The position numbers were made by a program, and so were the translations under genes. Below are positions 2,435 through 17,928 of a stretch of DNA of 23,863 bases, in pieces. The notes below the pieces were generated by a model that worked only from the letters and a program-made list of their open reading frames with translations, did not search any database and was not told the origin of the DNA. How positions within the stretch are numbered: the stretch's first letter is position 1; each line of letters starts with the position of its first letter. The stretch is from a virus. Lineage: Duplodnaviria; Heunggongvirae; Uroviricota; Caudoviricetes. The stretch lies in the IMG/VR virus record IMGVR_UViG_2534682349_000001. The stretch is one strand, 5' to 3'.

Positions 2435-2503
2435 TTGGAATTAATCACAACAAAAATATTGAAATGAATTTATTTTACAAAAAGAGAGGGATACAAAGAT
2501 AAG

Positions 2504-3226
2504 GTGAACAAAACGCTATTTAAAACTGAATTAAAGACGTACGAAGAGAGGAAAGAGAATATTGATAAAGAATTAAGCCTCAAACTCTTCGAGGAATTTA
2601 ATCGTGATGACATTGATAAGGGTAAGACAATGGCGGAAAGCTATTCGGGCTGGTTTAATGACCGAATTGTTCAATACTTAGTACACGGGCGCAATATAGA
2701 TAATCCAAAGGAAACAGATTATCCATTTTATGCGAGTGATTATGATTATTACAGAACAGGAATGGCTAAAGCCACATTGCTAACTGCGCAGATTGATGAT
2801 TGGGTCAATCCGATCATGTCAAAGGATTACGAAATAAAAAATCAGGAAAATAAAAAAGAATATATTGAACGCTTATTTGATACAAACAATTTAGAAGTTA
2901 ATGACTTAAGAAATTTTATTAAATTAGGGCTTCACAAGGATCTGAAAAAGTTAAATTTTGAAGATTATTCTTTTGATTTATTACGAAATTTGCAAGAATT
3001 GCAAAAAATTGTTTGGATGGGCTGTACAAAAAATACTGATCAAATATTTTTGAATTATTTTGATGGAAAAAGATCAATTAATGAAATAAGCGTTATTTAT
3101 GGTGTTACTCATCAGAATGTTTCAAAAAAATTAACAAGAATTTGCAAAAATGCCTTAAAAAAGTTGCGCGCACATAAAGGGTGCGCTTGTCTTAATGAGG
3201 AAGTAGATAATAAATTATCTGCTTAG
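2504..3226 (+). CDS. Sigma-70 region 4-like HTH transcription regulator or phage sigma factor (240 aa)
   Basis: C-terminal FLNYFDGKRSINEISVIYGVTHQNVSKKLTRICKNALKKLR is a typical region 4 HTH. No clear region 2 was recognised. Confidence 0.6.
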   Translation: MNKTLFKTELKTYEERKENIDKELSLKLFEEFNRDDIDKGKTMAESYSGWFNDRIVQYLVHGRNIDNPKETDYPFYASDYDYYRTGMAKATLLTAQIDDWVNPIMSKDYEIKNQENKKEYIERLFDTNNLEVNDLRNFIKLGLHKDLKKLNFEDYSFDLLRNLQELQKIVWMGCTKNTDQIFLNYFDGKRSINEISVIYGVTHQNVSKKLTRICKNALKKLRAHKGCACLNEEVDNKLSA

Positions 3227-3294
3227 TCGTAAAATACTTGCGTTTGTACCATTTTTCTTCGCGGTTGTTGCGAACCGCGGAGTTATGAGGATTA

Positions 3295-3327
3295 AGGGTA
3301 TTAGTCAGTTCGACTCTGACATATCCT
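3295..3327 (+). ncRNA. tRNA-minihelix-like element 1 (7 bp, 2-nt bulge, 5 bp, TTCGACT T-loop)
   Basis: AGGGTAT(3295-3301)/ATATCCT(3321-3327); GTCAG(3304-3308)/CTGAC(3316-3320); loop TTCGACT 3309-3315. Confidence 0.5.
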
Positions 3328-3373
3328 CACCGTATAAAATAAACATTTTAACAAGAGAGCGAGAGAGAAAAAT

Positions 3374-3640
3374 ATGTTAAACAAGAAAGATTTAATTGAA
3401 ATTATTGCAAAGCAACAAGAAACTACAAAGGTTGAAGCTAAGAAGATTGTGGACGCCTTTACTGATGGTATTAAGTCCATTATGGAGGACAACAAGTCAG
3501 TAAACATTACAGGTTTTGCAAAGTTTGAAAGTAAGTACAAAGAAGCTTACAAGCGTGTATTTGGTGTAACTGGTGAATTAATTGAAGTCCCAGCACATCA
3601 CGTACACAAGGCAACTTTATCAAAGAAGATTGCTGAATAA
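3374..3640 (+). CDS. hup: HU family histone-like DNA-binding protein
   Basis: MLNKKDLIEIIAKQQETTKVEAKKIVDAF...VNITGFAKFE...ELIEVPA...ATLSK is a classic HU fold signature. Confidence 0.93.
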   Translation: MLNKKDLIEIIAKQQETTKVEAKKIVDAFTDGIKSIMEDNKSVNITGFAKFESKYKEAYKRVFGVTGELIEVPAHHVHKATLSKKIAE

Positions 3641-3647
3641 TTAAGTT

Positions 3648-3708
3648 AACAGTTCATCCGTTAGTCCATGGAGCTATAAAAACCCACGATCGAATGGGCT
3701 GTTGGGTT
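3648..3708 (+). ncRNA. Candidate structured RNA (stem plus possible pseudoknot)
   Basis: AACAGTTCAT(3648-3657)/ATGGGCTGTT(3694-3703) 10-bp stem. Loop AACCCA(3681-3686) is complementary to TGGGTT(3703-3708). Confidence 0.3.
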
Positions 3709-3744
3709 GGTTAAGCAGTCCGAACTAAATAATGTCACACGGAA

Positions 3745-3850
3745 GCGCTCGTGTGATTTTCAAAGCAGATAATAACCAGTGAAAACCTCCTTAATAACAA
3801 ATAAAAAATGAAACTGAGATTATTGTCTGTTGTGAAAACTACACGAGCGT
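3745..3850 (+). ncRNA. Long hairpin RNA with an anti-Shine-Dalgarno sequence in its loop
   Basis: 3745-3775 pairs with 3820-3850 in register (29/31 pairs including G-U). The loop carries ACCTCCTT at 3785-3792. Confidence 0.55.
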
Positions 3851-3877
3851 AAATTATGTGACGAAGGGGACAATCAT

Positions 3878-4048
3878 ATGAATTTAGATATTGATGTCGC
3901 CCTCAAGAAGCATGTTGAGTTCGTGCTTAGAAAAATGGACGAAATTGAAGCGTGCGAAGAACTATCAATTCATAACATGGCAGACCTTGACCGGTATGCT
4001 CACATATTAAGAAATCTAGCACAAACTCACGAAGCAATTATGAAGTAG
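3878..4048 (+). CDS. Small hypothetical protein, 56 aa (not in the ORF track)
   Basis: RBS GAAGGGGA at 3863-3870. MNLDIDVALKKHVEFVLRKMDEIEACEELSIHNMADLDRYAHILRNLAQTHEAIMK. The stop abuts the RBS of the next gene. Confidence 0.7.
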   Translation: MNLDIDVALKKHVEFVLRKMDEIEACEELSIHNMADLDRYAHILRNLAQTHEAIMK

Positions 4049-4060
4049 AGAGGTGAGTCA

Positions 4061-4837
4061 ATGGCAGGAAAAATATGTGTCATCTGTGGTAAAGAAAAAA
4101 GGTCTAATCAGCTTTTGAGACACAAGAACTTATTACTTGATACTGGTTTTTCTATCTGTCGCGATTGCGCCAATATGGTAGCCGATTTTAGCAATGAGGA
4201 TTCAGTTATTGAAATGGCTCAATTCGCAAATATTCCCTTTGTCAAGAATCTTTATATTGACGTAAAAAGAACAAGCAAGAACCCTAATTTCGGAGAATAC
4301 TTAAAGAAAATAGCTCCGTATAAGAATTTCAAGACCTTCTCAGATTCTGTATTCACAACAGATCATGCCGAGGAAACAGTAAGTATTACCCCCGAATTAG
4401 AAAGTAGATGGGGCAAGGGATATAACGAAGAAGAATATGCTTATTTTGAGAATGTGCTACAAGGTCTTATTGCAATTAAACCGGCAACAACGGCATTTGA
4501 GATTCAGAGATATGTTGCCAATGTAAAGTTGAAGGACGCATTGGATAAGGCGTTTATGGATGGAGACTCTAAGGCGATCACTGCCTTACGTAAAGCATAT
4601 TCAGAAGATTCAAAGGATTTAGGGTTTGACGCTGTGCTTAGTGGGAATGATGACAGTGGAAAGACGTTGGGTCAAAGAATTCAAGGTTGGGAACTTAGTG
4701 AACCTGTTCCAGATAGCGATAAATACGAAGACGCTGCTGGCTTAAAGAAGTACATTGAAAAATGGTTCGTGATTCCTATGAAGAGAACCTTTGGTGTCGC
4801 CTCTGAAAAGGAGGTTGAAAGTCTATATGAAGACTGA
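4061..4837 (+). CDS. Putative terminase small subunit / terminase-associated protein with N-terminal Zn finger
   Basis: CxxC...CxxC (CVIC, CRDC). Directly upstream of and overlapping the terL start. Function is assigned from position only. Confidence 0.5.
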   Translation: MAGKICVICGKEKRSNQLLRHKNLLLDTGFSICRDCANMVADFSNEDSVIEMAQFANIPFVKNLYIDVKRTSKNPNFGEYLKKIAPYKNFKTFSDSVFTTDHAEETVSITPELESRWGKGYNEEEYAYFENVLQGLIAIKPATTAFEIQRYVANVKLKDALDKAFMDGDSKAITALRKAYSEDSKDLGFDAVLSGNDDSGKTLGQRIQGWELSEPVPDSDKYEDAAGLKKYIEKWFVIPMKRTFGVASEKEVESLYED

Positions 4838-5027
4838 AAAGACACAACAAAAGTCTAGCTATTTTGAAAAACGAGAACGCAACCTGATGAAATGGGTTGG
4901 ATATTGGCGAAGAAACCCACAGATATTCGTAAAAGATTATCTTGGAGTTAACCTGAAGCCTTATCAGAAATTGTTGTTTTACATGATGAATAAGGTTGAT
5001 TTCTTCATGTATATTGCGGCGAGAGGT
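4827..5027 (+). CDS. terL: Terminase large subunit, exon 1
   Basis: SD AAGGAGGT at 4808-4815, ATG 4827. Contains LKPYQKLL (Q motif) and YIAARG (first half of Walker A), followed by in-frame TAA at 5031. Confidence 0.85.
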
Positions 5028-5277
5028 TTGTAATACTGGCCTAGCTAGTTAGAAATAATTAGTCGTAATCGCGGAACTAAGCTGGAAGCCTAAGTTGAAA
5101 GATATGGTAATCAGAGGGGAAGGCTCATATGAGTCACTCGCAGAGCATAGTAGGTGAAATAATCCTACCACGAGGCCGCGACATCTAAACAAGTAAAGTT
5201 GCAGATGAAAAGTTATGCCGAGCTTATGGGAAACCATAAGAAGTAGATGATAAAAAGCGTCTACGATAACAACGCTA
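5028..5277 (+). ncRNA. ORF-less group I intron (IA-like, has P7.1) in terL; 3' boundary uncertain (5274, 5277 or 5280)
   Basis: P1 AGGU/GCCU with U5027-G5039. P2 5044-5063 with GAAA loop. P3 UCGCGG 5069-74/CCGCGA 5176-81. P7 G(a)GCAUA 5143-49/UAUGCC 5214-19. P7.1 5150-68. P8 CAUCU/AGAUG. P9 CUUAUGG-GAAA-CCAUAAG 5223-40. P9.1 5243-64. Confidence 0.85.
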
Positions 5278-6830
5278 CAGGGTAAGTCTTTTTTAATTGC
5301 TTTGTACTGTATTGTTCGGTGTATTTTATACCCGGAACAAAGATAGTACTAGCGTCCGGGACGCGCTCACAAGCTGCAAATATCATTTCACAAAAGATAG
5401 TGGACTTTTACGATCAATCAGCAGCAGTTCGATACGAAATAGGTTACAAGAAGGACCATATTAAAACGACGGTCAATGAGGCAAAGGTTGAGTTTAAGAA
5501 TGGATCGAGGATCTTTGCCGCTACATCTGGTGAAAGTGCTCGTGGTTTACGTTGTAATATCTTAATCTGTGACGAATTTCGTCTGATTAAGAAAGAAACA
5601 TTGGATAAGATTCTAAAACCGATGCTTAACGTTTACCGCCAGCCACCATATTTATCGAAACCAGAATATAGTCACTTAAGGCGAGAGGAAAACAAACAGA
5701 TTTACATTTCTTCTGCTTGGTATAAGTCGCATTGGATATGGGACGAATTCAAGAGTTATTTTAAGAAAATGACCAATTCGGATAAGCGTTATTTCGTTTC
5801 AATCCTCCCATATCAATTATCGGTTAAGAGTGGATTACTTTCACAGAGTGCAGTTGATGCCGAAAGAACAAGTGACACATTCGATCAAACGAGTTTTGAT
5901 ATGGAATATGAAACTATATTTGTTGGTGAAAATGATAAAGCCTACTTCAAGCTTGATCCATTAAACAAGATTAGAACGGTGGGAAAGACGTTTAGACCTC
6001 CAACTAATCAAGAATTCGTTGAAAATCAACATAGATCAAAACCAAGAATGTTGTCGAATTTCAAACGTGTCGATAAAGTAAATGAAATTAGAATAGTAGC
6101 CCTTGATATTGCCTTAATGGGTGGAAATAAGCTCGTTAAGAACGATACATCAGCATTTACGTTGATGAGGTTAATTCGTGAGGGTGATGAATATAAGCGC
6201 CAGGTTGTCTATTTGGAAAGTATTCAAGAGTCAATTTCTTCGGAGAACTTAGCTATTCGTTTAAAACAACTATATTACGACTTTGAAGCCGATTATGTAG
6301 TTATGGATGCGAATGGTAATGGGTTGGGAGTATTTGATGCTTGTACAACCGTCCTTACAGATAAAGATCGTGATATAGAATATCCGGCCTGGGCTTGTAT
6401 CAATGATGACGAAACAAACGATAGAACAAAAACTAAGGGAATTAAATGTGTATATACGGTTAAGGCAAATGCGGCTTTCAACCACGAAATTGCAGTTTCC
6501 CTAAAGAATGTCATTGAATCTGGAAAACTCAGATTACCTATGAATGACATTCAAAAGCGCGAAGAATTACAGGAAGATAAGGAATATCGAAAGTTGCCGG
6601 CCGAAGAACAAATTAAGGTCTTATATCCATATGTTCAAGCGACTGCATTGGTCAACGAGTTGGTAAACCTTGAATATACCGTTAGAACAGGATATATCAA
6701 GATTTACGAAGTCGGAACAACGACTAAGGATAGGTACAGTTCAATTGCTTACTGTAATTACTATGCAAATGAATTAGAAAAAGAATTAAAAGAAGAAGCA
6801 TCTAATAATTATGCTTACTTCATGCTCTAA
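5278..6830 (+). CDS. terL: Terminase large subunit, exon 2 (one-base frameshift at about 5331-5334)
   Basis: (Q)GKSFLIALYCIVRCILYP starts at 5278/5281 and continues in the -1 frame as GTKIVLASGTRSQA. Walker B ILICDEF. Nuclease motifs VALDIA, MDANGNG and KDRYSS. Confidence 0.9.
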
Positions 6831-6845
6831 ATAGGCGGTGGAGTT

Positions 6846-8411
6846 TTGAAAAATAAACGCAGAAATATGCGAGGGAGACGACGCACCTATGAGCGAAATA
6901 TAGCAAGCATTCGTAGAAGAAACGCTGAATATGCTTCTGTTTTAGCGGATCCTAAGAGTCGGTTTAAGCCAAGTACTAACGCAGCTACCGAAAAGAAAAA
7001 TATAAAGAGCTATTTACAGAGACCTGCCGATAATTTTGCCACAATAGCAGCAACGTTACGACAGGCATATTTAAACAGCGGAATTGTAAGCGGTGTCATG
7101 GATTATTACGTAGCACACCCAACATACAATTATTCAATATATCCTGTACTTGGTAATAAACAATATGCTATTGCAGGTAATATGCAACAAGATTACATAG
7201 ATATGGCCTACCAGCTCAATATGTTAAATGTCAACTATTGGGCTCCTAAATTCTTCAAGGACACATTGATTGATGGGGTTACGTTCTATGTGAAGATTGA
7301 AGATTCTACGGGAATAGCTTACATGAAGCTTCCTCCAGAGTGGTGTCGTATTTCTAACTTAGAAAATGGTGTATATCGTTTTAGAGTCGATGTTTCCAAA
7401 CTAAAGCAAGAACAATATGACGAATTACCTAATGAACTTCAGCAAGCTTTTGATAAATATCATGACAATAGTATTAGCGATGATGATCAAGATTGGTATG
7501 ACCGTAAGTGGTATATGGTCTCAGATGATGGATTTGCTTTTACATTTGACCATAACGCAATAAATAACGGTGGAGTTGCGATTTCACCATTCGCAAGTGT
7601 TTTAGCAGATAGTCTTTCACTAGATGCTGCTAAAGATAATATTGATATTAAAGATAAGCTTGATACGATCCGAATTATTCACTCCAAACTACCAACTGAT
7701 AGTAACGGAGCGCCAACACTGGATCTTAAAACTGCTCGGAATTTTGACGATCAAATGAGGTCAAGATTACCAGATGGTGTTGTCTCTATTACGAGTCCAT
7801 CTTCGTTAGATAATGTCCCATTAAAAGGGTCTGGTAATGAAGGTGTGTACGACACTGTAAATAATGGACTGGAGCAGTTATTTTACGACTTGGGTATTAG
7901 TTCCTCACTATTTGGTGGAAAAACTACTAGTTCAAATATTGTAAAGGAATCGGTAAAAAAGGATTCAAACTGGATTTATACAAACTTATTCCCAATGCTT
8001 GAAGCATATTACAACTTTGAACTTAGCCAAGTTAAGACTCAGAACAAGATTCCTTGGAATTTGAAGTTCATTAGAGAATCGAACTTCACCTTAAAAGAAG
8101 ATATTGCTAACTATAAAGATCAGCTTAGTTATGGTGGGTCAAGACTTGATTACTTAGCATCTGTTGGATTTACTCCAGATCAGGTAATTTCACAATTAAG
8201 TTTTGAACAACAGGCATTGGACATTGACTCAATTATGGTAGTTAAACCAACGTCTAATACCATTTCAAGCAAAGAAGCTGCGAATAGCAGTGGAAAGGCG
8301 ACACCTAAAGCACCTAATAGCAATATAAACAATCCAAATAAGGGTAACGTTGGCCGACCAGAAACAGATAATCCAACGGATGACACTGACCGGCTCAATG
8401 ACGCTCAATAG
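6846..8411 (+). CDS. Portal protein
   Basis: 521 aa directly after terL. Portal-like size, segments such as FFKDTLIDGVTF and LFYDLGISSSLFGG, and a C-terminal GRP motif. Confidence 0.8.
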   Translation: MKNKRRNMRGRRRTYERNIASIRRRNAEYASVLADPKSRFKPSTNAATEKKNIKSYLQRPADNFATIAATLRQAYLNSGIVSGVMDYYVAHPTYNYSIYPVLGNKQYAIAGNMQQDYIDMAYQLNMLNVNYWAPKFFKDTLIDGVTFYVKIEDSTGIAYMKLPPEWCRISNLENGVYRFRVDVSKLKQEQYDELPNELQQAFDKYHDNSISDDDQDWYDRKWYMVSDDGFAFTFDHNAINNGGVAISPFASVLADSLSLDAAKDNIDIKDKLDTIRIIHSKLPTDSNGAPTLDLKTARNFDDQMRSRLPDGVVSITSPSSLDNVPLKGSGNEGVYDTVNNGLEQLFYDLGISSSLFGGKTTSSNIVKESVKKDSNWIYTNLFPMLEAYYNFELSQVKTQNKIPWNLKFIRESNFTLKEDIANYKDQLSYGGSRLDYLASVGFTPDQVISQLSFEQQALDIDSIMVVKPTSNTISSKEAANSSGKATPKAPNSNINNPNKGNVGRPETDNPTDDTDRLNDAQ

Positions 8412-8425
8412 GTGGGGTTAAACAA

Positions 8426-10141
8426 ATGATTGAAGTAACGACAGTAAAGTTACCAACTCACTTTGAAGAGCTTGAATCTAATACGGATTCTCGCTTCCAA
8501 AAAGTGAAGATTTATATAGCTCATACAGGTGAGAATTTAAATAATTCTGTATTTTCCAAAGATGTTCTGGAGAATATGATTCCCTCACTTTCGAATATTC
8601 CTATATTGGGTCTGATTAGTGAAAATTCTAATGGAGAAAGCGACTTTAGGGGTCATGAAAAGACATTGGACATTACTGATGGAAAATTCAAGATCAAGTT
8701 TAATACTCATGCGTATGGGTTTGTTCCAGAAGATAATAATGCTCATTTCGAAGTTACTGGTGGCAAAGAATGGCTAGTGACCGATGGCTATCTCTGGACA
8801 AGATTCATTGACGCTATAGAACTATTTAACGATGCAAGTGGTTCTAAAGGGCAATCAATGGAAGTGGGAAACGTTGAAGGATATACAGATAACAGAGGAC
8901 GATTAGTATTTACAAGTGCTATGTTCACTGGATTATGTATTCTTGGTGATGATGTACCGCCAGCAATGACTGGTTCAGCGATTTCAACAGTATTTAGTAA
9001 AGAAGACTTTAAGTCAACTTTTAAAGAAATGTTAGCCGAGTTTTCGGCTGAGAAAGGAGAAAAAGCTTTGGCGACTAAGAAAAAACAAGAAAACGGAGCA
9101 ACGGTAGTTGAAGAACCAAAGTCTGATGCTTCAACGGCTACGGAACCAAAATCAAGTGCTGTTAGTGAGACTGCAAAGCCAGCTACACCTGCTTCATCTG
9201 CGTCAACCAGTAGCGCTTCTAAACCAGCCGAAACGCCTGCATCAAGTGCAAGCGAAGATAATTCAAAGGCTAGTTCTGCAACGTCAACCAGTACTTCTAC
9301 ATCCGATAAAGCTGCACCAGCTAATGAATTAGGTGCCGAACCAGCTAGCGGAGATAATACAGAAGAGCAAGACGACAATGCAGAAATGTCCAGTGATAAG
9401 GACGATAAAGACGGTATTTCTTTAAACAAAAATGAAAGCGATTACAAAAAAGACGATGGTAATGATGATTCCGAAGACGATACGGAAGATGGGGACGACA
9501 AAAAAGATAAAGACAAGTTCGCTTGTGGCTCAGGAAAAAACAAGAAGAAGGCACAATTCGAACTAAATCTTAATGATCGCGAATATGCATTATCACAAGC
9601 GGTACGTAACAAATTTAACGCTGGTGGAAATACCGATATTTATCCAGTTGAAGTCTTTGAGGGTTACGGAATCTTCAAGTCAGTTAACTGGAGTTCTGAT
9701 GACAGTAAGCTGTATCGGATTGATTACAGCGTGAATGCAGACGACTCAATCAAGTTGGGGGATAAAACGGAGATTTTCTCAATGTATGTCACTCAAGACG
9801 AGAAAAACAAGATTGAATCAGATCGCAATAAATTAGCTGTTTTAGAAGCACAAATTGCTGAACTAACGGAATACAAGAACAGCATCGAAATGTCTAAGAA
9901 AGAGAAGGCATTAGATGAGGTTAAGGCTTCGTTATCGGCAGAACAAATGAAGGACATTCGGGGCAGATTCAAAGAAATGTCTGTAGAAGATATTGAAAAA
10001 GAAATTGCCTACGCAATGTACACAACGAATAAGAGAGAGCTATCACATCCAAAACGTGGAGGAGTCCAAACAACGAATTTCTCTACAAAAAAGGAAAGTG
10101 AATTGGGATATGGAACAGCAGATGTCCTATTCCACAAATAA
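8426..10141 (+). CDS. Prohead protease/scaffold fusion (YonD-like)
   Basis: N-terminal FQKVKIYIAHTGENLNNSVFSK...SMEV...FTGLCILG domain, a low-complexity linker and a coiled-coil C-terminus. Lies between portal and capsid genes. Confidence 0.75.
   Translation: MIEVTTVKLPTHFEELESNTDSRFQKVKIYIAHTGENLNNSVFSKDVLENMIPSLSNIPILGLISENSNGESDFRGHEKTLDITDGKFKIKFNTHAYGFVPEDNNAHFEVTGGKEWLVTDGYLWTRFIDAIELFNDASGSKGQSMEVGNVEGYTDNRGRLVFTSAMFTGLCILGDDVPPAMTGSAISTVFSKEDFKSTFKEMLAEFSAEKGEKALATKKKQENGATVVEEPKSDASTATEPKSSAVSETAKPATPASSASTSSASKPAETPASSASEDNSKASSATSTSTSTSDKAAPANELGAEPASGDNTEEQDDNAEMSSDKDDKDGISLNKNESDYKKDDGNDDSEDDTEDGDDKKDKDKFACGSGKNKKKAQFELNLNDREYALSQAVRNKFNAGGNTDIYPVEVFEGYGIFKSVNWSSDDSKLYRIDYSVNADDSIKLGDKTEIFSMYVTQDEKNKIESDRNKLAVLEAQIAELTEYKNSIEMSKKEKALDEVKASLSAEQMKDIRGRFKEMSVEDIEKEIAYAMYTTNKRELSHPKRGGVQTTNFSTKKESELGYGTADVLFHK
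9068..10141 (+). CDS. Putative nested in-frame scaffold protein (internal TTG start)
   Basis: AAAGGAG at 9053-9059 lies 8 nt before an in-frame TTG at 9068, exactly at the domain/linker boundary. Confidence 0.5.
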   Translation: MATKKKQENGATVVEEPKSDASTATEPKSSAVSETAKPATPASSASTSSASKPAETPASSASEDNSKASSATSTSTSTSDKAAPANELGAEPASGDNTEEQDDNAEMSSDKDDKDGISLNKNESDYKKDDGNDDSEDDTEDGDDKKDKDKFACGSGKNKKKAQFELNLNDREYALSQAVRNKFNAGGNTDIYPVEVFEGYGIFKSVNWSSDDSKLYRIDYSVNADDSIKLGDKTEIFSMYVTQDEKNKIESDRNKLAVLEAQIAELTEYKNSIEMSKKEKALDEVKASLSAEQMKDIRGRFKEMSVEDIEKEIAYAMYTTNKRELSHPKRGGVQTTNFSTKKESELGYGTADVLFHK

Positions 10142-10171
10142 TTAGATAGAGAGAAAGAGGTTTATAAATCT

Positions 10172-10612
10172 ATGGCTGAAGTTATTTTAGACAAGATTAA
10201 ATCTACAGCACACATTGACAGTGTTGTAGCAAAAGATGATCTAAAGAACGGTCAATGGTTAACTTTGGGCCTTCTTGATGCAGACGGTGAACGTCGTTTA
10301 GCTGAAAAGGCAAAGACAGAAGATACAGCAGATGTTCTTCTTGTTACAAGTTTTACCAGATATGATCCAAATACTGATTTTGCAGACTACGTTACTAAGG
10401 CAGGACAAACTGGTCGTGCTTTCCATATGGAAAAGGGCGATGTTATTTCAGTGACTAAAGACTTAGTAGCTAGCGCAAAGAAGGGTGACGAATTAACTAT
10501 TGGTGACGATGGTTTAGGGTTCAAGAAAGCAGAAGGTCGCGGTATCGCACAAATTATTGGCGAAGAAAATCAAGGATTTTACGGCGACATGTTTGTAATC
10601 GCTATTCGCTAA
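10172..10612 (+). CDS. Capsid accessory/stabilising protein
   Basis: 146 aa between scaffold and capsid genes, with RBS GAGG. Assigned from position in SPbeta-like synteny. Confidence 0.55.
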   Translation: MAEVILDKIKSTAHIDSVVAKDDLKNGQWLTLGLLDADGERRLAEKAKTEDTADVLLVTSFTRYDPNTDFADYVTKAGQTGRAFHMEKGDVISVTKDLVASAKKGDELTIGDDGLGFKKAEGRGIAQIIGEENQGFYGDMFVIAIR

Positions 10613-10636
10613 TAAGGAAACGAGGTAAATATTCAA

Positions 10637-11620
10637 ATGGAAAGAAACGATTTTATGAATTTTGCTCGCGACCTATACTTCAAGCGTGAATTTAGCAAGA
10701 ACGGTGTATCAGGTCAAGAAGCAATGCGTAACGCTATTTTAGACGCACTTGGTGGAGAATTTACCCCTACTTCTTGGGGTAAAAACAAGTATGATGTTTT
10801 CGAATTAATTTCTGAAGCGGTTGACGCAGTTGTTCCACGTTTATTAACGGACCAATTTGCTAACATTGCTGACATTCGTACTGTTGCTATTGGTGAAAAA
10901 CCGATTTTCCAAGTACAAGATCCAAAGGCTATTCGGGTAGGTCGCGTAGCAGCCGGTGACCAAGATATTCGTCGGCAAACTATCAAGGACACTCATTACT
11001 CAATTGAAACAGAAGACTTTGGCGCATCTGTATACACAGAACTCCACCAATTTATGACTGGGACTATTGACTGGAGCAACTTGATTGATCGTGTGGCGCA
11101 AGCATTTACAAATCACATTCAATCTACTATTGCAGAAGCATTGAATGACAGTTACTCATTACTTAATGCTACTGACAAGGTAACTGGTCAAGCAACTCTT
11201 GATCAAGTTGTTAAGCTTGCAGAACGTATTCAAGTTAAAGCTAACCGTAATGTAGAAATTTATGGAACCAAGGCTGCTTTAAGCAAGTTAGCAGAAATGG
11301 CAAACGTAAATCTCTACTCAGGTGATATGAAGAACGAATTAAATGAAAAGGGCTTCCTTGGTGTTGTTCGTGGATTGAAGTTAAACGAAATTCCACAAGC
11401 ATTTAAGGTTAACAAAGATGAATTCGCCCTTGACGATAACAAGCTTTTGATTCTTCCAGAAGGTGAAAAGATCGTTGGTGTGGTAATGGAAGGTGACGCT
11501 ATCACTGTTGAACCAGACTACACAGGACGGAATGATTTACAAATGGGCTTTAAGACCATCGAACGTATGGGAATCATGGCTCTTCAAATGAAAGTATACG
11601 GTATGGCTGAATTAGGCTAA
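10637..11620 (+). CDS. Major capsid protein
   Basis: 327 aa with highly biased codon usage and HK97-like layout. Position after scaffold and accessory genes. Confidence 0.85.
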   Translation: MERNDFMNFARDLYFKREFSKNGVSGQEAMRNAILDALGGEFTPTSWGKNKYDVFELISEAVDAVVPRLLTDQFANIADIRTVAIGEKPIFQVQDPKAIRVGRVAAGDQDIRRQTIKDTHYSIETEDFGASVYTELHQFMTGTIDWSNLIDRVAQAFTNHIQSTIAEALNDSYSLLNATDKVTGQATLDQVVKLAERIQVKANRNVEIYGTKAALSKLAEMANVNLYSGDMKNELNEKGFLGVVRGLKLNEIPQAFKVNKDEFALDDNKLLILPEGEKIVGVVMEGDAITVEPDYTGRNDLQMGFKTIERMGIMALQMKVYGMAELG

Positions 11621-11625
11621 TCGTA

Positions 11626-11656
11626 AGCTGGGTGGGGTTCGACTCCTCATCTAGTT
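11626..11656 (+). ncRNA. tRNA-minihelix-like element 2 (12-bp stem plus TTCGACT loop)
   Basis: AGCTGGGTGGGG-TTCGACT-CCTCATCTAGTT gives 12 consecutive WC/GU pairs and starts 5 nt after the capsid stop. Confidence 0.65.
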
Positions 11657-11814
11657 ATAGTGACAACATATGAGAGAGAAATGTAGTCATATTAATAAAG
11701 AATGTTCAGTTATTTCGGTTATATTGATTCTAAAGTTTAATCGTATTGATGTTGCACTTTATCCTTCTTTGCGGCAGGATAGATAATGTTTAAAAAGGAG
11801 GTGGCATTGATACG

Positions 11815-12990
11815 ATGAATAATACTGCGATTTGTACACAAAAGGTACGACTTTACCCTAATTTGACGATGAAAAAAGTCCTAGACGATTTATGCGACTA
11901 CCGGCGATATTGCTGGAATCAAGGACTTGCTTTGTGGAACGATATGTATGACGAATCATTAATTATGAATGATAAGAAATTACGTCCCAACGCAAGAAAA
12001 GTACGTGATGAGTTAGTTGCTAATAAAGAGGACTGGCAATATCAATTATCATCACGATGTTTGCAATTAGCTATCTTTGATTTAGGAGTTGCCTGGAAGA
12101 ACTATCTAAATCAAACATTACCCGATTGGGGTAAGCCACAATTTAAATATAAAAAGTCTAATAAACAGGGATTTAAAACCGATAACGCGAGATTGGTAGG
12201 ACGAGCTTTGTTTTTAGATAAACCCAGAAGCATAAATGCTGATAATTGGTTCCCAATTCGAATAAAGGGACTTAAGAGGATAGAAGGAAAATTGAAATTA
12301 ACTTCTGTTACTCGTAAGGGAAATAAATATTGGGCGAGTCTTACATTTGAAGTTAAATCTATTAGACAAAAGAGAAAAACAAAAAGTAGTACAGCAATTG
12401 ATCTTAATGTTGGGCACATTAACTATACTGATGGAAAGATTAATACATTGCCTAAGAAATTACAAAGATTATACGGTCGTATCAAGCACTATCAACAGTG
12501 CTTAAGTAAGAAGCGTATCGTCAATGGGAAGTTAGCTGCTCAAAGCAAGAATTACGTTAAAACGAGAGCCAAGTTGCAACGTGATTACGATAAGGTAGTA
12601 AATATCCAACATGACATTGTACAAAAGTTTACAACTAAATTGGTTACTGATTATGACAAAATTGTAATTGAAGATTTAGACGTAAAAAAGATGCAAATGT
12701 CACATGTTGCCTCTAAAGGAATGCATCGGTCCATGTTTGGCTATTTTAGAGAAGTATTGAAATACAAATGTGATTGGTATGGTAAAAAAATTATTTTAGC
12801 TGATCAATATTATCCTAGCACCCAACGATGTTCTAGTTGTGGATATATTAAAACTGGGGAAGAAAAAGTTTGTCTTAATGGAAATAAAAAGCACAGAACT
12901 AAGCATAATGAATATATTTGTTATGAATGTGGTGCAATTAAGGACAGAGATGAAAATGCTGTAATGAATTTATTAGCCTTAGCGGAATAA
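11815..12990 (+). CDS. tnpB: TnpB RNA-guided endonuclease
   Basis: N-terminal TQKVRLYPN HTH. RuvC-I AIDLNV, RuvC-II IVIEDL, Zn finger CSSC...CYEC, RuvC-III DRDENA. All three catalytic acids are present. Confidence 0.93.
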   Translation: MNNTAICTQKVRLYPNLTMKKVLDDLCDYRRYCWNQGLALWNDMYDESLIMNDKKLRPNARKVRDELVANKEDWQYQLSSRCLQLAIFDLGVAWKNYLNQTLPDWGKPQFKYKKSNKQGFKTDNARLVGRALFLDKPRSINADNWFPIRIKGLKRIEGKLKLTSVTRKGNKYWASLTFEVKSIRQKRKTKSSTAIDLNVGHINYTDGKINTLPKKLQRLYGRIKHYQQCLSKKRIVNGKLAAQSKNYVKTRAKLQRDYDKVVNIQHDIVQKFTTKLVTDYDKIVIEDLDVKKMQMSHVASKGMHRSMFGYFREVLKYKCDWYGKKIILADQYYPSTQRCSSCGYIKTGEEKVCLNGNKKHRTKHNEYICYECGAIKDRDENAVMNLLALAE

Positions 12991-13148
12991 ATAAAAATAA
13001 CGGGGCTGGCTAGGTCCTTAAGCTATCAGAGCTGGTCGATGTCATTACCCTCTAGTTAGGATATGGGAATACCGGTGTTGACGGTAGTAAATAAAATAAG
13101 AAAGAAAATATGAATATTCTTTTTATAGATCTACATTTTTATATAGCA
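12991..13148 (+). ncRNA. Putative omega/reRNA scaffold of TnpB
   Basis: Structured tail downstream of tnpB (GGGGC/GTCCT, GCTATC/GGTAGT and GCTGGT/ACCGGT stems) at the position expected for the right-end RNA. Confidence 0.6.
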
Positions 13149-13164
13149 AAGAGAGGTTTTGAGA

Positions 13165-13728
13165 ATGTCACGTGAAGTAAAGCGCCGGAAGCGCAAAATT
13201 ATTGACCCCTCAACTGAAATAGTAGTTGCAAATAATACTTATGGTACTTTTGCTTACGAATCAAAGAATGGGGTACTTTCAATTGTTTTAGAAGAGAACG
13301 GTGATGAAGAATACATCACATACTCTGAGGCAAGAAAGCTAAAAAAGTATTTTGAAAATATGTCTCTGTTAATAATTGACGTTAACTCTGACGAAGATAT
13401 TTCAATTATGGATGTTGTTCGCGGATTGCGATTAACAGATGTTTATAGTTCATACCTTAAATTTGTAGAAGGTTTTAATGAAGACGAATTTGATGAGGTG
13501 GAAGCATTGTATTCAGATGCTCTTGCTGACTTTGTAGTTGATTCAGATATAGACGAATTTAAGGAAGTACTTAAAACTCCACTAAGAAATGCGATCGTTA
13601 TGACAACGGTTGAGATGTATAAACAACGACGCTTAACAAATCGTGACAAACAAGACCTTGTTAATAACAGAGATGAGGATTTCTGGGCGGATGTAGATGT
13701 GTCCGTTAAAGCGGTAGAAGGTCACTAA
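13165..13728 (+). CDS. Hypothetical head-module protein (YonA-like position)
   Basis: RBS GAGAGG at 13151-13156 favours ATG 13165 over TTG 13159. Confidence 0.7.
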   Translation: MSREVKRRKRKIIDPSTEIVVANNTYGTFAYESKNGVLSIVLEENGDEEYITYSEARKLKKYFENMSLLIIDVNSDEDISIMDVVRGLRLTDVYSSYLKFVEGFNEDEFDEVEALYSDALADFVVDSDIDEFKEVLKTPLRNAIVMTTVEMYKQRRLTNRDKQDLVNNRDEDFWADVDVSVKAVEGH

Positions 13729-13753
13729 ATATTATTTGAAAGGGGAGTCTTTC

Positions 13754-14212
13754 ATGGCAAATGAAAGTAATGACCCTAAATATACATATTACGAAGAAGT
13801 CTACAAGGTTTTCTTGAATACAGTAGATTCATATGACTTCGCTCAAATGGATGATGACGAATTAGAAAGCGTCTTATATGGATATATGGATTCAGGTCGA
13901 TTACTTTTCAGTACTTATATAGCTAAAGATTTCATGGATGACGATCCTGAAAATAAGAGATTTAACTTCAAGATGACAAGAGTAGAAATTGCTTTACTTG
14001 CACAGGCAATGAAACTTGAGTGGGTTCGTGAACATCTGAATTCGGAAGAGTTAATGCGAAAAGCGATTGGTGATCGAGACTTTAATACGGTTCAGGGATA
14101 TCAATACTTGGATCGTCTCCAGACTATGGAGAAACAATTGAGTAGGGAGATTACCGCTCAAATCAATCGATTAGAATACTCGAATCCAGAACTGTACGGT
14201 GAAATGAAATGA
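13754..14212 (+). CDS. Putative head-tail adaptor
   Basis: RBS AAAGGGGAG favours ATG 13754. Helical protein of about 152 aa at the neck position. Confidence 0.5.
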   Translation: MANESNDPKYTYYEEVYKVFLNTVDSYDFAQMDDDELESVLYGYMDSGRLLFSTYIAKDFMDDDPENKRFNFKMTRVEIALLAQAMKLEWVREHLNSEELMRKAIGDRDFNTVQGYQYLDRLQTMEKQLSREITAQINRLEYSNPELYGEMK

Positions 14213-15267
14213 GTAGTTTTGCAACATCATACCGCAGAAAGCAACGAGTCATTGGGGACAACAGAGTTAATAGAAATTATAATCGGCAGCTTGAGGGCTT
14301 TAATCTTTACTACAAAGATACTCTAACTAAGCATGATTGTATTATTGACGGAGTTCCAACACAAGCGGTTTTCCAAGATCATTCTCAAAGTAATAATAAA
14401 GATTTGTCTGATGACAAGTACGTAGTGGTTCCTAACTCAGTAAAAATTGGTGTGGGATCGTATGTTGAGTGGGCAGATGAAACATGGATGGTTTTTACTG
14501 AAGAGTATAAAACGATTCCTTCTCATCAGCAGTTAAAGATAAAACATACAAATAGACGGATTAAATGGCTAACGAATAGGGATAGCAAGCTAATCTGTAA
14601 TTTTGGTAAAGGTTGGCCCGCTTATGTACAGAACCAAACCTTATATACATTAGGAGTTTCGTTCTCTGGGCAAAATATAGCTTTAGCTAATGCAAAGATG
14701 TCTGTTTATATTAAAGACATTCCAGAAACAAGGGCAGTTAGCGTAGGTACTAGATTATGGATTTCGGGTCAGGTATATAAGATCGAATTTGCAGATTATG
14801 TATCAAGACCAGGATTAGTTAATTGGTTATTAGATGAGGATACCAAAAATCCAGAGACAGATAACTATGATTTAGAAATAGCTGATTATTGGGTGTCTGG
14901 ACAGAAAGAAACCGATAACACCAATAATAGTGAAGTAAAGCCTGCTATGCCTTCTAAGGCTTCTGACAGCTCTTCTGAGGAAGAAAAGCCAGAAGTTGAA
15001 TGGAATATCGAAGGAAATAAAAAAGCTCGCCTGAGCCATACGTATGTATACACAGCTATGAATTCAGATGGGACTAAGGCAGATGTGTCTGAATGGATTC
15101 TTGGGACTCTTGAAGACTCTCCATTTTATGTAAAAGAAAAAGACAATCACAGTATTACAGTGACTGTTAAGGATATATTCAAACTTGTGGGACAGACTGT
15201 AACAATTGCAGCTAAAGTTGATGGCAAGATTAAGAATATAGCAATAAAGATTATCAAGAAGTTCTAG
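14209..15267 (+). CDS. Putative head-closure/neck protein with C-terminal beta-rich (Ig-like) extension
   Basis: ATGA overlap with the previous gene. An S/E-rich linker is followed by an approximately 85-aa beta-strand-rich tail. Confidence 0.45.
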   Translation: MSSFATSYRRKQRVIGDNRVNRNYNRQLEGFNLYYKDTLTKHDCIIDGVPTQAVFQDHSQSNNKDLSDDKYVVVPNSVKIGVGSYVEWADETWMVFTEEYKTIPSHQQLKIKHTNRRIKWLTNRDSKLICNFGKGWPAYVQNQTLYTLGVSFSGQNIALANAKMSVYIKDIPETRAVSVGTRLWISGQVYKIEFADYVSRPGLVNWLLDEDTKNPETDNYDLEIADYWVSGQKETDNTNNSEVKPAMPSKASDSSSEEEKPEVEWNIEGNKKARLSHTYVYTAMNSDGTKADVSEWILGTLEDSPFYVKEKDNHSITVTVKDIFKLVGQTVTIAAKVDGKIKNIAIKIIKKF

Positions 15268-15274
15268 GGAGTGA

Positions 15275-15832
15275 GTGAGAGTGCCTGCTATAGAAATTAC
15301 GAATGAGGCTCCTAAACATGTTTCTTCAATAATGAAGATTAGTGAGTGGAAGCAACAAATGATGGAAACAATGGCGATGGATGATGAATTAGCCAAGTTG
15401 CTTTATTACGATTCATCAGATGCCTTAAGTAAGCCCAACTTAACAGAAGAACAAAAATATGAGTTGGTAACTGAAGGAGAAGAAAAACGTCGAATTTATC
15501 CTACGAGATACAAGCCGGGCGTCATTATGGATCAACAAAGTTTTATTGGAATGGCTATTTCTAATTTTTCATTTCCTGAAATTCATTATCACGTTGATAG
15601 TGATTTCGTTATGGGGTACTTATATTTCTTTATTCTAGTTGATAACAAAATTATGGATATTGACGAAGGGCAGAGACAAGATCAAATACTTGCTAGAATT
15701 TATGATTTATTCTCTGATTCTAGAGAATATGGAATTGGAACAGTAAAAATTGGTCAGCTATCTGAATTGTGGGAGCAGAATAATAAGTTCGGTGGATACA
15801 CCATGATGATGAGAGTATATGACTTTAAGTAA
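15275..15832 (+). CDS. Putative tail completion/terminator protein (start may be GTG 15281)
   Basis: Position and size in the neck module only. Confidence 0.45.
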   Translation: MRVPAIEITNEAPKHVSSIMKISEWKQQMMETMAMDDELAKLLYYDSSDALSKPNLTEEQKYELVTEGEEKRRIYPTRYKPGVIMDQQSFIGMAISNFSFPEIHYHVDSDFVMGYLYFFILVDNKIMDIDEGQRQDQILARIYDLFSDSREYGIGTVKIGQLSELWEQNNKFGGYTMMMRVYDFK

Positions 15833-15844
15833 AGGGTGTCTGAG

Positions 15845-16639
15845 ATGAGAATTAATTATTCAAATATAATTCTCGGGAAAGATATACCGATTAACGAGAA
15901 GGTTAAACTTCATATTCCGACTATTGGTGAGTTGGCTGAGGCCGATAATAATGATTTCAACGAAAGTACTCGGATTTTTACAACAAGTGTTAGAGAACAG
16001 TTTAGTGGTGTTCCCGAACAAGTAGACATGATTGAGGAAAAATTTCCGACCCTGTGGGATATGGCGTTTGATGACGAAATGAATGCCCTCGTTGGGGAAG
16101 CTATGTTTGGCGAAAATACAACATTGTTACGTCAATTTTTGAAGGCGCTCTCATACTGGACTAAAACATCCGAGGATCAGTATCGAGCATTAGGAAATAA
16201 AAAAATTATTAGCGAAGAATTGGATTGGATTATTGATGTAAAAACATACACCTATCTATCAAATCTAATTAAAGCTGTGACATTAACAAAACCTAATAAA
16301 GATTTTATAGCTCCAAAGGGAGTTAGTAATAATCCACGAAAAATTCAGATGTGGAAAAACACATACAATGGTCGACTTAGGGAGGCTATGAAAAAGAAAA
16401 ACGTAGAATTGGGAGATCAAATTTTACAGTTAGAAGCATTTGCTCCTGGTTATGTCGGCTTTAGAGATATTAAGGACATGACGTATTACCAATTCTCAAA
16501 TCTACTTTCTGTTTACACAGCCAAGTATTCGTCTGAAAAACAATATCAGATTTATACATCTGAAAAATTCGACACAAAAGATATGAAGTTACCTGATTTA
16601 AGTGAAGAAATTAAATTAATCAAATTTGATGAAAACTAA
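15845..16639 (+). CDS. Hypothetical phage structural/assembly protein
   Basis: RBS AAAGGGTG at 15831-15838 favours ATG 15845. Immediately precedes the major tail gene. Confidence 0.6.
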   Translation: MRINYSNIILGKDIPINEKVKLHIPTIGELAEADNNDFNESTRIFTTSVREQFSGVPEQVDMIEEKFPTLWDMAFDDEMNALVGEAMFGENTTLLRQFLKALSYWTKTSEDQYRALGNKKIISEELDWIIDVKTYTYLSNLIKAVTLTKPNKDFIAPKGVSNNPRKIQMWKNTYNGRLREAMKKKNVELGDQILQLEAFAPGYVGFRDIKDMTYYQFSNLLSVYTAKYSSEKQYQIYTSEKFDTKDMKLPDLSEEIKLIKFDEN

Positions 16640-16670
16640 AAAATAATACGCGAAAGGAGACATGTAATAT

Positions 16671-17777
16671 ATGTCTACTTATGGTTTAAAGGATGCGTCA
16701 AATATTACATTCGTAAAGCGTGGTACTACTACGCCTGTTCTGCATATTGATTACGCAAATCAAACCAATACTCAATGGCAATCAAACCGTGTTTACGCAA
16801 AGAAGAAAGGTACTAATGCAATTGCATGGGACTCTGCGCGAACGGGTAAATTGACTATTCAAACAGAAATGTTCGATCTTCGACTATTAGCAATGATGGC
16901 AGGGGACGATGATTTACATAAAGGAACTAACACAATCTTTAAGCGGAAAGTCTTCCAATTGAGAAGTGATCGTTTAATCGATTTGGGTGCAAAGCCGGTA
17001 GAAGGTTCTGTATCAGTATTCCGTGTTGATGATGCGGATAAGCGTGAACACATTACAGAAATTCCTATGTTAGTCTCTGGTGATGCTGGATCAGTTCCTC
17101 CAATGGTGGCCGACGTTGCTGTATCTGCGAAGGATACTACTGCAACAATTACTTGGAGTGCTGCAAATAATGCAACAAGTTACGTTGTGTACCGTAATGG
17201 TGTAGCAGTTGGTTATCCTGTTACAACTTCATTTAGCGACTCAAACTTAACTCCTGAAACTGAATACAAGTACACCGTTGTTGCCAAGAACACAGCAGGT
17301 CAATCTGTACAGTCTGCGGAAGTTGTAGTTACTACTGCAACTAGTGGAACTACAGAAGCGGGAGCTGCCGTTAAAGCAACGGAAGATGCTGTTAAGAAGG
17401 CGCAAGAAAATGCAAGTGGCGCAAATCTTAATGGACTTTACTTCAAGATGACTGAAGGTGGCAATGGTATTCAGCTTTCTGATGAAGCTGTCGTAGGGGC
17501 TGCATATGCAGTTTACTACGTTGTTAAGCAAGACGGTGTATCTTCATACACTATCAATGCTTTGAAGTTTGCAAAAAACTACGAAATCTTTGCTGATGCA
17601 GTAATTCGTTCCGAAGTTGGTGAAGATAAGTTTGCCCAAATTCACTTTACTAATGTAAAGCCAGCTGCAAACGTAACATTCAATCAGAACTCAGAGCAAG
17701 TAACATCACTTTCGTTAGAATTTGATTTACTTGCCGATGAAAAGAATGATCAAGCTATCTACAAGTACATTGAATAG
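16671..17777 (+). CDS. Major tail protein with internal fibronectin type III domain
   Basis: RBS AAAGGAG. Tube-like N- and C-termini (YGLKDASNITF..., SLEFDLL). FN3 signature TITWS...SYVVYRNG...LTPETEYKYTVVAKN at about 17097-17336. Confidence 0.75.
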   Translation: MSTYGLKDASNITFVKRGTTTPVLHIDYANQTNTQWQSNRVYAKKKGTNAIAWDSARTGKLTIQTEMFDLRLLAMMAGDDDLHKGTNTIFKRKVFQLRSDRLIDLGAKPVEGSVSVFRVDDADKREHITEIPMLVSGDAGSVPPMVADVAVSAKDTTATITWSAANNATSYVVYRNGVAVGYPVTTSFSDSNLTPETEYKYTVVAKNTAGQSVQSAEVVVTTATSGTTEAGAAVKATEDAVKKAQENASGANLNGLYFKMTEGGNGIQLSDEAVVGAAYAVYYVVKQDGVSSYTINALKFAKNYEIFADAVIRSEVGEDKFAQIHFTNVKPAANVTFNQNSEQVTSLSLEFDLLADEKNDQAIYKYIE

Positions 17778-17783
17778 CTAGCC

Positions 17784-17814
17784 GGGTAAGTGGGGTTCGA
17801 CTCCCTGCTTATCT
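17784..17814 (+). ncRNA. tRNA-minihelix-like element 3 (12-bp stem plus TTCGACT loop)
   Basis: GGGTAAGTGGGG-TTCGACT-CCCTGCTTATCT gives 12 consecutive WC/GU pairs and starts 6 nt after the major tail stop. Confidence 0.65.
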
Positions 17815-17862
17815 TTAATAAAGCGATTATATTAATCCATTTATACGGTTATGAATGGACAG

Positions 17863-17891
17863 AAAGTCCGAAACCTCGGGCTTTATTTTTT
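17863..17891 (+). terminator. Intrinsic terminator between major tail and fibre genes
   Basis: AAAGTCCGA-aacc-TCGGGCTTT followed by ATTTTTT. Confidence 0.75.
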
Positions 17892-17928
17892 CAAGAATTT
17901 ATAGATTTTACAAAAAGGGGAATCGTTG

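Follow-up and report, generated by a model that had tools for sequence, protein, structure and literature searches.

The question raised by this locus is why a tailed phage should carry hairpins with the T-loop of transfer RNA (tRNA) between its virion genes. The locus lies in a stretch of 23,863 nucleotides (nt) from a Caudoviricetes virus (IMG/VR record IMGVR_UViG_2534682349_000001), hereafter called the window, and comprises three intergenic hairpins, designated sites 1 to 3 (Table 1). The window is part of a large siphovirus-type phage-plasmid of Limosilactobacillus reuteri, close to p53608_1 of strain ATCC 53608. The initial annotation of the window read the hairpins as tRNA-minihelix mimics that punctuate the virion operon. 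Comparison among relatives identifies them as a conserved RNA motif with a near-invariant T-loop, which is new and well supported even without cleavage. The further reading, that they are processing signals like the t-elements of plant mitochondria, addressed to host RNase P and RNase Z and perhaps also to the CCA-adding enzyme, is given about even chances here.

All three hairpins are found on the plus strand where the initial annotation had placed them, each with the loop TTCGACT closed by a G-C pair. Their architecture is of the tRNA type, with a 7-base-pair (bp) acceptor stem stacked on a 5-bp T stem, the loop T54-Psi55-C56-R57-A58-N-Y60 and the G53-C61 closure. The annotated stem length of 12 bp holds for every site as 7 + 5 bp, but a 2-nt bulge in site 1 had gone unmentioned. 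This bulge falls exactly at the 7/5 (acceptor/T) junction. The site 2 and site 3 helices contain four G·U pairs each. The 9-mer GTTCGACTC occurs three times in the window, always on the plus strand, against a shuffle mean of 0.10, and three occurrences are reached in 0 of 100 shuffles. The sense strands of the sites fold at −12 to −16.3 kcal/mol (z −2.9 to −3.9), and the antisense strands give no fold. As had been claimed, the pairing is kept while the stem sequences differ; this is true within the window and far more strongly so across relatives.

The sites are neither tRNA genes nor intrinsic terminators. ARAGORN calls no tRNA gene in the window, Rfam matches nothing at the three sites even at E ≤ 10, tRNA family included, and the terminator scan picks up none of them. 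The acceptor and T stems are just 0–2 nt apart, with neither the D arm nor the anticodon arm of the canonical cloverleaf. The 3′ flanks read N-U-A and not as a U-run. Site 2 is followed by an A73-like base (11657), a U (11658) and then a conserved GTGAC, and site 3 by two U residues (17815 and 17816). As annotated, the sites have no D or anticodon arms, no encoded CCA and no U-tract. The described placement directly after the stop codons of the major capsid and major tail genes is also correct, the tail gene being a probable tail-tube gene. The remaining hairpin does precede the HU gene, ending 46 nt upstream of its start codon, but the accompanying statement that HU stands at the head of the late region is not established.

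Relatives of the window were drawn from IMG/VR, GTDB contigs and a plasmid collection; megablast against a phage collection gave no match. A covariance model was built from 11 distinct copies of the element, and covariation statistics were taken from 21. Among the 21 copies, 96% of the cells pair, and changes on both sides are observed in 11 of the 12 pairs. The observed pairing values are reached by 0 of 500 shuffles, and sliding the 3′ partner lowers pairing to 45–57%. The distribution of the noncanonical cells should be noted. G·U or U·G fills 41 cells, whereas A·C or C·A fills 2, indicating that the helix exists as RNA on the messenger RNA (mRNA) strand, and not as DNA or antisense RNA. 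While the stems drift, loop positions U54, C56, A58 and U60 are invariant, and U55 and G57 are altered in one copy each. The closing pair G53-C61 is invariant or nearly so. The comparison bears out that the hairpins are genuine, selected sense-strand RNA elements with the acceptor/T-arm geometry of tRNA and its T-loop.

The dimensions of the helix are conserved as well. It is 12 bp long in almost all copies, and extra bases appear solely at the 7/5 junction, namely 2 nt in site 1, 7 nt in its homologue in the relative G003 and 1 nt in site 2 of the relative G004. This same junction is where the D and anticodon arms of a tRNA branch off from the acceptor/T stack. The G003 homologue of site 1 has the loop UUCAACU. 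The bases flanking the helix (−1/73) are mostly U/U or A/A and are able to pair in 4 of the 21 copies, compared with a shuffle mean of 8.8 (P about 0.016), so the helix end is kept sharp at 12 bp. Position 74 is U in 19 of the 21 copies and C in none, C75 is present in three, and CCA is not encoded. The identity pair G3·U70 (columns 6/32) is G·U in 2 of the 21 copies and otherwise C-G, A-U, U-A or a mismatch. An alanine-accepting minihelix like that of transfer-messenger RNA (tmRNA) was considered and rejected, since G3·U70 is not conserved.

Table 1. Coordinates of the three minihelices and of the genes and signals around them.
Feature	Coordinates	Strand	Description
Minihelix site 1	3295..3327	+	7 bp (3295-3301/3321-3327), 2-nt 5′ bulge 3302-3303, 5 bp (3304-3308/3316-3320), loop UUCGACU 3309-3315
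Minihelix site 2	11626..11656	+	12-bp uninterrupted helix, loop UUCGACU 11638-11644; starts 5 nt past capsid stop
Minihelix site 3	17784..17814	+	12-bp uninterrupted helix, loop UUCGACU 17796-17802; starts 6 nt past stop of probable major tail gene
Major capsid protein gene	10637..11620	+	phrog_4088; ~30% identity to annotated major capsid proteins; upstream of site 2
Probable major tail (tube) protein gene, FN3/Ig-like domain	16671..17777	+	phrog_2729 virion structural protein, weaker major-tail families, fn3 domain; upstream of site 3
HU-family DNA-binding protein gene	3374..3640	+	PF00216, E 9e-18; phrog_379; downstream of site 1
Companion hairpin	3257..3282	+	10-bp stem with 6-nt loop, lying 12 nt before site 1; kept in G003 and G004 with compensatory changes
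Conserved hairpin (~17836-17859), then intrinsic terminator (stem 17863-17884 and T-run to 17891)	17836..17891	+	downstream of site 3; terminator scan

Among the relatives, the element holds its position behind the capsid gene and, for some members of the family, behind the tail gene as well; sites 1 and 3 are lineage-specific. The post-capsid copy (site 2) is kept in L. reuteri lineages, L. ingluviei, 127–129-kb elements of the L. salivarius type and others, down to 54% capsid identity, and spans relatives from both Limosilactobacillus and Ligilactobacillus. On the sequences compared, this copy forms the core of the system. The reuteri clade carries site 3, as do G003 (loop UGCAACU) and the relative G007, and site 1 is restricted to the reuteri clade and G003.

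Six distant phages (Sundance, SPbeta-like 2, Thrax4, PMBT69, KKP_3916 and FADO) have a classical terminator hairpin with a T-run after the capsid gene, and the covariance model finds no minihelix at this spot in them. These terminators or attenuators occupy the same slot, between the homologous capsid gene and the next head gene. In each, a perfect, GC-rich hairpin is combined with a T-run and lacks a T-loop, whereas the minihelix has G·U-rich stems and a T-loop but no T-run. The presence of terminator hairpins in the six phages suggests that the post-capsid site is a 3′-end or attenuation point. The replacements among relatives further suggest that the minihelix is interchangeable with ordinary hairpins where a transcript end or attenuation is expected.

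The spacing around the post-capsid copy should be noted. Between the capsid stop codon and the helix there are 5 to 31 nt, depending on the relative. The next start codon, in comparison, lies 31–36 nt past the helix in Limosilactobacillus-type relatives and 32 or 43 nt past it in two salivarius-type loci. Since the latter spacing is the better conserved, the element may as plausibly act at the 5′ end of the downstream message as at the 3′ end of the upstream one. In a Liquorilactobacillus mali contig (L070), the place of the minihelix after the capsid gene is taken by no more than a hairpin of 7 bp closed by a 3-nt loop (AACTAGA GTG TCTAGTT). The stem of this hairpin is similar to the acceptor part of site 2, and it may be a minimal, acceptor-stem-only relic.

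When whole records of related phages were searched with the covariance model, strong matches occurred only at the three syntenic late-region sites, and the weaker matches corresponded to genuine tRNAs, to a phage tmRNA and to look-alikes within the tRNA array. In genome scans (45 candidates scored per genome, with limited sensitivity), matches at E ≤ 1e-4 were obtained in 4 of 151 genomes of Lactobacillaceae, each on the sense strand and within a phage context, and in 0 of 150 genomes of other Bacilli. One of the four is the carrier of p53608_1; in the other three, the match lies beside HNH/small terminase, DUF1064 or structural protein genes. In the three Lactobacillaceae genomes besides the carrier (L104, L105 and L106), single T-loop minihelices with stems of ~12 bp lie on the sense strand in unrelated prophage regions, one between an unknown open reading frame (ORF) and an HNH endonuclease/small terminase pair, and another right past a terminator in a structural region.

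The tRNA look-alikes provide a comparison within the same phage family. On the minus strand of p53608_1 (G002), at ~100.5–104.3 kb, at least three elements consisting only of an acceptor stem and a T arm (100519, 102874 and 104115) are left uncalled by ARAGORN, and similar elements are carried by G003 and G004. These anticodon-arm-less look-alikes sit inside the tRNA/tmRNA array, where processing by RNase P and RNase Z is expected. They share with sites 1 to 3 the 7-bp acceptor stem, the 5-bp T arm, the T-loop, the lack of an encoded CCA, and A or U at position 73 followed by U74. However, they have 16–29 nt between the stems instead of 0–2 nt, and they lie among tRNA genes on the other strand, whereas sites 1 to 3 lie within protein-coding operons. 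RNase Z and the CCA-adding enzyme are both encoded by a host relative (G001), while the phage records encode neither. No CCA directly follows the called 3′ end in any sampled phage or host tRNA gene.

The context of the hairpins is a long transcription unit. The terminator at 17863–17891 is the single strong plus-strand intrinsic terminator found by the terminator scan within 3.0–18.2 kb, suggesting that the virion genes form a long polycistron. We propose that each hairpin in this polycistron is a cis-acting RNA element that mimics the coaxial acceptor-stem/T-arm "top half" of a CCA-less tRNA precursor, with the host enzymes gauging the 12-bp stack from the T-loop. RNase P would cut at the 5′ end of the helix and RNase Z past the discriminator-like base, and the CCA-adding enzyme may act next. 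The three cuts would part the capsid and tail-tube messages from the cistrons that follow, and a stable tRNA-like helix would cap the ends thus formed. A single operon could thereby supply both abundant and rare virion proteins, with mRNA stability or stoichiometry being affected by cleavage. The order of the cuts would matter. If RNase P acted first, the capsid mRNA would be stripped of its 3′ hairpin, whereas RNase Z alone would leave it capped.

The properties of the two nucleases are consistent with such recognition. RNase P measures the stack of T stem-loop and acceptor stem; a loop resembling the T-loop is required, whereas the D-loop is dispensable (PMC4919913). RNase Z is inhibited by cytidines after the discriminator (74/75), and the Bacillus subtilis enzyme makes contact with just the T arm plus acceptor stem (PMC7479834). 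By this rule, the sites have the form of CCA-less RNase Z substrates, with an acceptor stem and a T arm present and no C74.

Several points weigh against the processing proposed here. For most RNase Z enzymes, the 5′ end has to be matured beforehand by RNase P (PMC7479834), and an initial cut by RNase P would leave the 3′ end of the capsid mRNA unprotected 5 nt past the stop codon, with no obvious gain for expression. A 5′-leader preference of RNase P is not evident, and the site 3 loop of G003 has a G at position 55. Site 3 of the salivarius type has a 12-bp stem with an unrelated 5-nt loop, and G004 and G007 have plain hairpins or terminators at site 1 or 3 (another hairpin and a terminator at site 3 of G004). 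Since relatives swap the minihelix for plain hairpins in this manner, an ordinary hairpin can serve at sites 1 and 3.

Four public sequencing runs were compared over 2500–19500, all as assembled contigs, by which RNA ends are neither shown nor excluded. Long contigs from RNA libraries span sites 2 and 3, an observation that cannot exclude processing. One metatranscriptome contig begins at 3298, 3 nt inside site 1, and the contigs of another RNA study begin at 3204 or earlier; neither start can be taken as an RNA end. Contig breaks near 3709–3750 are shared with a probable DNA run. As neither RNA ends nor cleavage products nor non-templated CCA were seen, our confidence in processing is held at about one half.

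The alternative that survives best, though we consider it improbable, is that the hairpins are generic protective or pausing structures. They would protect 3′ ends from exonucleases or terminate transcription weakly with the aid of factors, with the T-loop as a compact and stable cap and with no tRNA enzyme involved. The ordinary terminator hairpins after the capsid gene of the distant relatives agree with this, as do the plain hairpins at sites 1 and 3 of some close relatives, one of which likewise has a 12-bp stem. A real terminator also lies within 50 nt past site 3, and the RNA contigs read through sites 2 and 3. On the other hand, a stabiliser has no need for an invariant 7-nt loop of the tRNA type, for exactly 12 bp, for bulges confined to the junction, for unpaired bases at −1/73 or for U74 without C74. 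The lack of a U-tract and of any hit at the sites in the terminator scan also argues against termination.

Somewhat less probable again is that the hairpins are binding sites for a reader of the T arm that does not cut. The reader could be a phage antiterminator or translational regulator, acting as lambda N does at boxB, or a host T-arm binder, for instance TruB, the m5U54 methyltransferase or EF-Tu. Simple binding would require neither the defined end of the helix nor a 3′ flank like that of tRNA, and no candidate binder was identified; TruB in particular is disfavoured by the G55 variant at site 3 of G003. Nevertheless, hairpins that bind proteins typically show an invariant loop on stems that covary. 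The location of site 1 in a leader, that of site 3 just upstream of a terminator, and the conserved spacing of 31–36 nt to the next start codon fit a bound regulator, too.

That the hairpins are decayed tRNA genes or DNA-level linkers at module borders (recombination microhomology or a target for an insertion sequence, IS) without RNA function is very improbable and largely refuted by the strand-specific covariation: a recombination boundary near site 3 (58% identity in the tail-tube protein of G007 against 80% in the next gene) and a TnpB insertion sequence 18 nt past site 2 in three genomes would suit it, but compensatory covariation with the 41:2 excess of G·U over A·C is explicable only by sense-strand RNA, and the hairpins are present in genomes without the IS.

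The preferred reading, processing of the hairpins by host tRNA enzymes, has precedents outside bacterial viruses. The t-elements of plant mitochondria are tRNA-like structures inside mRNA precursors, located just after or before ORFs, in which a stem of the acceptor type accompanies the conserved T-arm motif GGTTCRANYCC (Forner et al. 2007, PMC1920247). The termini of mRNAs fall at the ends of these elements, RNase P and RNase Z being the enzymes that cut there, and some released elements bear a non-templated C or CC (PMC1920247). Sites 2 and 3 match the t-element motif exactly, while site 1 (AGTTCGACTCT) departs from it at the first and last base. Most t-elements are partial cloverleaves of ~74 nt, whereas the present element is a bare minihelix of 31 nt in a bacterial virus, for which processing is proposed.

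Mitochondrial tRNA punctuation and the 3′ ends of the MALAT1/MEN-beta mascRNA type are alike in that a tRNA or tRNA-like fold past a long RNA directs cuts by RNase P and RNase Z (PMC4919922). These systems are eukaryotic and use full or near-full cloverleaves, unlike sites 1 to 3. MALAT1 shields its new 3′ end by a triple helix. No protective fold of this kind was noticed upstream of sites 1 to 3, and no search aimed at one was made.

In bacteria and phages, host RNase P acts through an acceptor/T-like stack on the precursor of the P1/P7 C4 antisense RNA, on polycistronic mRNAs of the his/lac/rbs type and on pre-tmRNA (PMC4919922). C4 and tmRNA differ from the present element in being non-coding with 3′ ends of the RCCA type, and the known sites in Escherichia coli operons are not conserved T-loop minihelices. 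None of these bacterial or phage non-tRNA substrates of RNase P is known from a virion-gene operon. Rfam has no family for the element, and literature searches on tRNA-like minihelices in phage mRNA found nothing relevant.

At slightly less than even chances, the sites represent a widespread, undescribed class of phage cis-RNA, in which bare tRNA top halves would recruit RNase P, RNase Z and the CCA-adding enzyme to punctuate polycistronic mRNAs. In this phage family, such elements would define where the capsid and tail-tube messages end, and a tRNA-like small RNA of 31–35 nt might be released. If host enzymes do cut at the hairpins, phages of Gram-positive bacteria have a compact 31-nt device for setting mRNA boundaries and protein ratios in long late operons. 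Boundaries would be set without terminators or phage-encoded factors, RNase P and RNase Z would gain a direct role in phage gene expression, and the system would be a bacterial-virus counterpart of mitochondrial tRNA punctuation. The minihelix could also serve as a small, portable RNA-processing tag. The proposal is readily testable, as the phage-plasmid of L. reuteri ATCC 53608 exists in culture.

The source element and the neighbouring genes are described as follows. Across most of 3000–18000, the window is 83–93% identical to three L. reuteri "plasmids", p53608_1 included. p53608_1 is circular, 138.5 kb in length, and carries RepA; the paper that published it describes a megaplasmid on which the prophage is incomplete and six tRNA genes are present (PMC4667477). 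The capsid protein is ~30% identical to its counterparts in Tsamsa-like, SPbeta-like, Sundance and Lactococcus large siphoviruses. The gene upstream of site 3 probably encodes the tail-tube protein, judging from its virion structural match, its FN3 domain and its position just ahead of the giant tail gene.

The giant tail gene is present in the window as two overlapping frames (17926–20982 and 20961–23861+), whereas its counterpart in p53608_1 is one ORF of 7134 nt. The split is a frameshift, whether due to a real mutation, programmed, or due to a sequencing error. In G007 (L100), the tail-tube protein is 58% identical to that of the window, but the block 17836–17891 and the giant tail gene are ~80% identical. 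This jump in identity suggests a recombination boundary at or near the site 3 minihelix.

Upstream of site 1, a conserved block, AATACTTGCGTTTGTACC, precedes the 10-bp companion hairpin (3232–3282 region). Both are kept in G003 and also in G004, though the latter lacks the minihelix. No sigma-70-type promoter match was found upstream of site 1. The block and the hairpin may be a phage-specific promoter or a regulator site.

Downstream of site 2, all Limosilactobacillus-type relatives have GTGAC (11659–11663 in the window) 2–3 nt past the minihelix. This motif could pair with GUCAC, which overlaps the AUG of the next gene (AUGUCAC, 13166–13172), and a 5-bp closing stem around the ribosome-binding site is conceivable. 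This pairing shows no covariation; it consists of just 5 bp, and L072 is without a compensating change. The GTG 3 nt past site 2 was considered as an alternative start codon but discarded, its reading frame being wrong or interrupted by a stop in L025.

The next head gene is separated from site 2 by a TnpB-only element of the IS200/IS605 type (1475 nt, 11675–13149), inserted between the minihelix, 18 nt upstream, and the ribosome-binding site of that gene. Its TnpB ORF (11815–12990) has OrfB_IS605, Cas12f1-like TNB and HTH_OrfB_IS605 domains. Site 2 was considered as the left-end hairpin of this element. This identity was rejected, since site 2 is identical in relatives without the 1475-nt element and no IS is near sites 1 and 3. 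An Rfam match to "Transposase-1 RNA" (RF03014, E 1e-14) at 13023–13081 probably belongs to the omega RNA of the TnpB element. The element is absent from p53608_1 and several public runs, while the same junction is occupied in L020 and in the more diverged L023, suggesting repeated targeting or homing.

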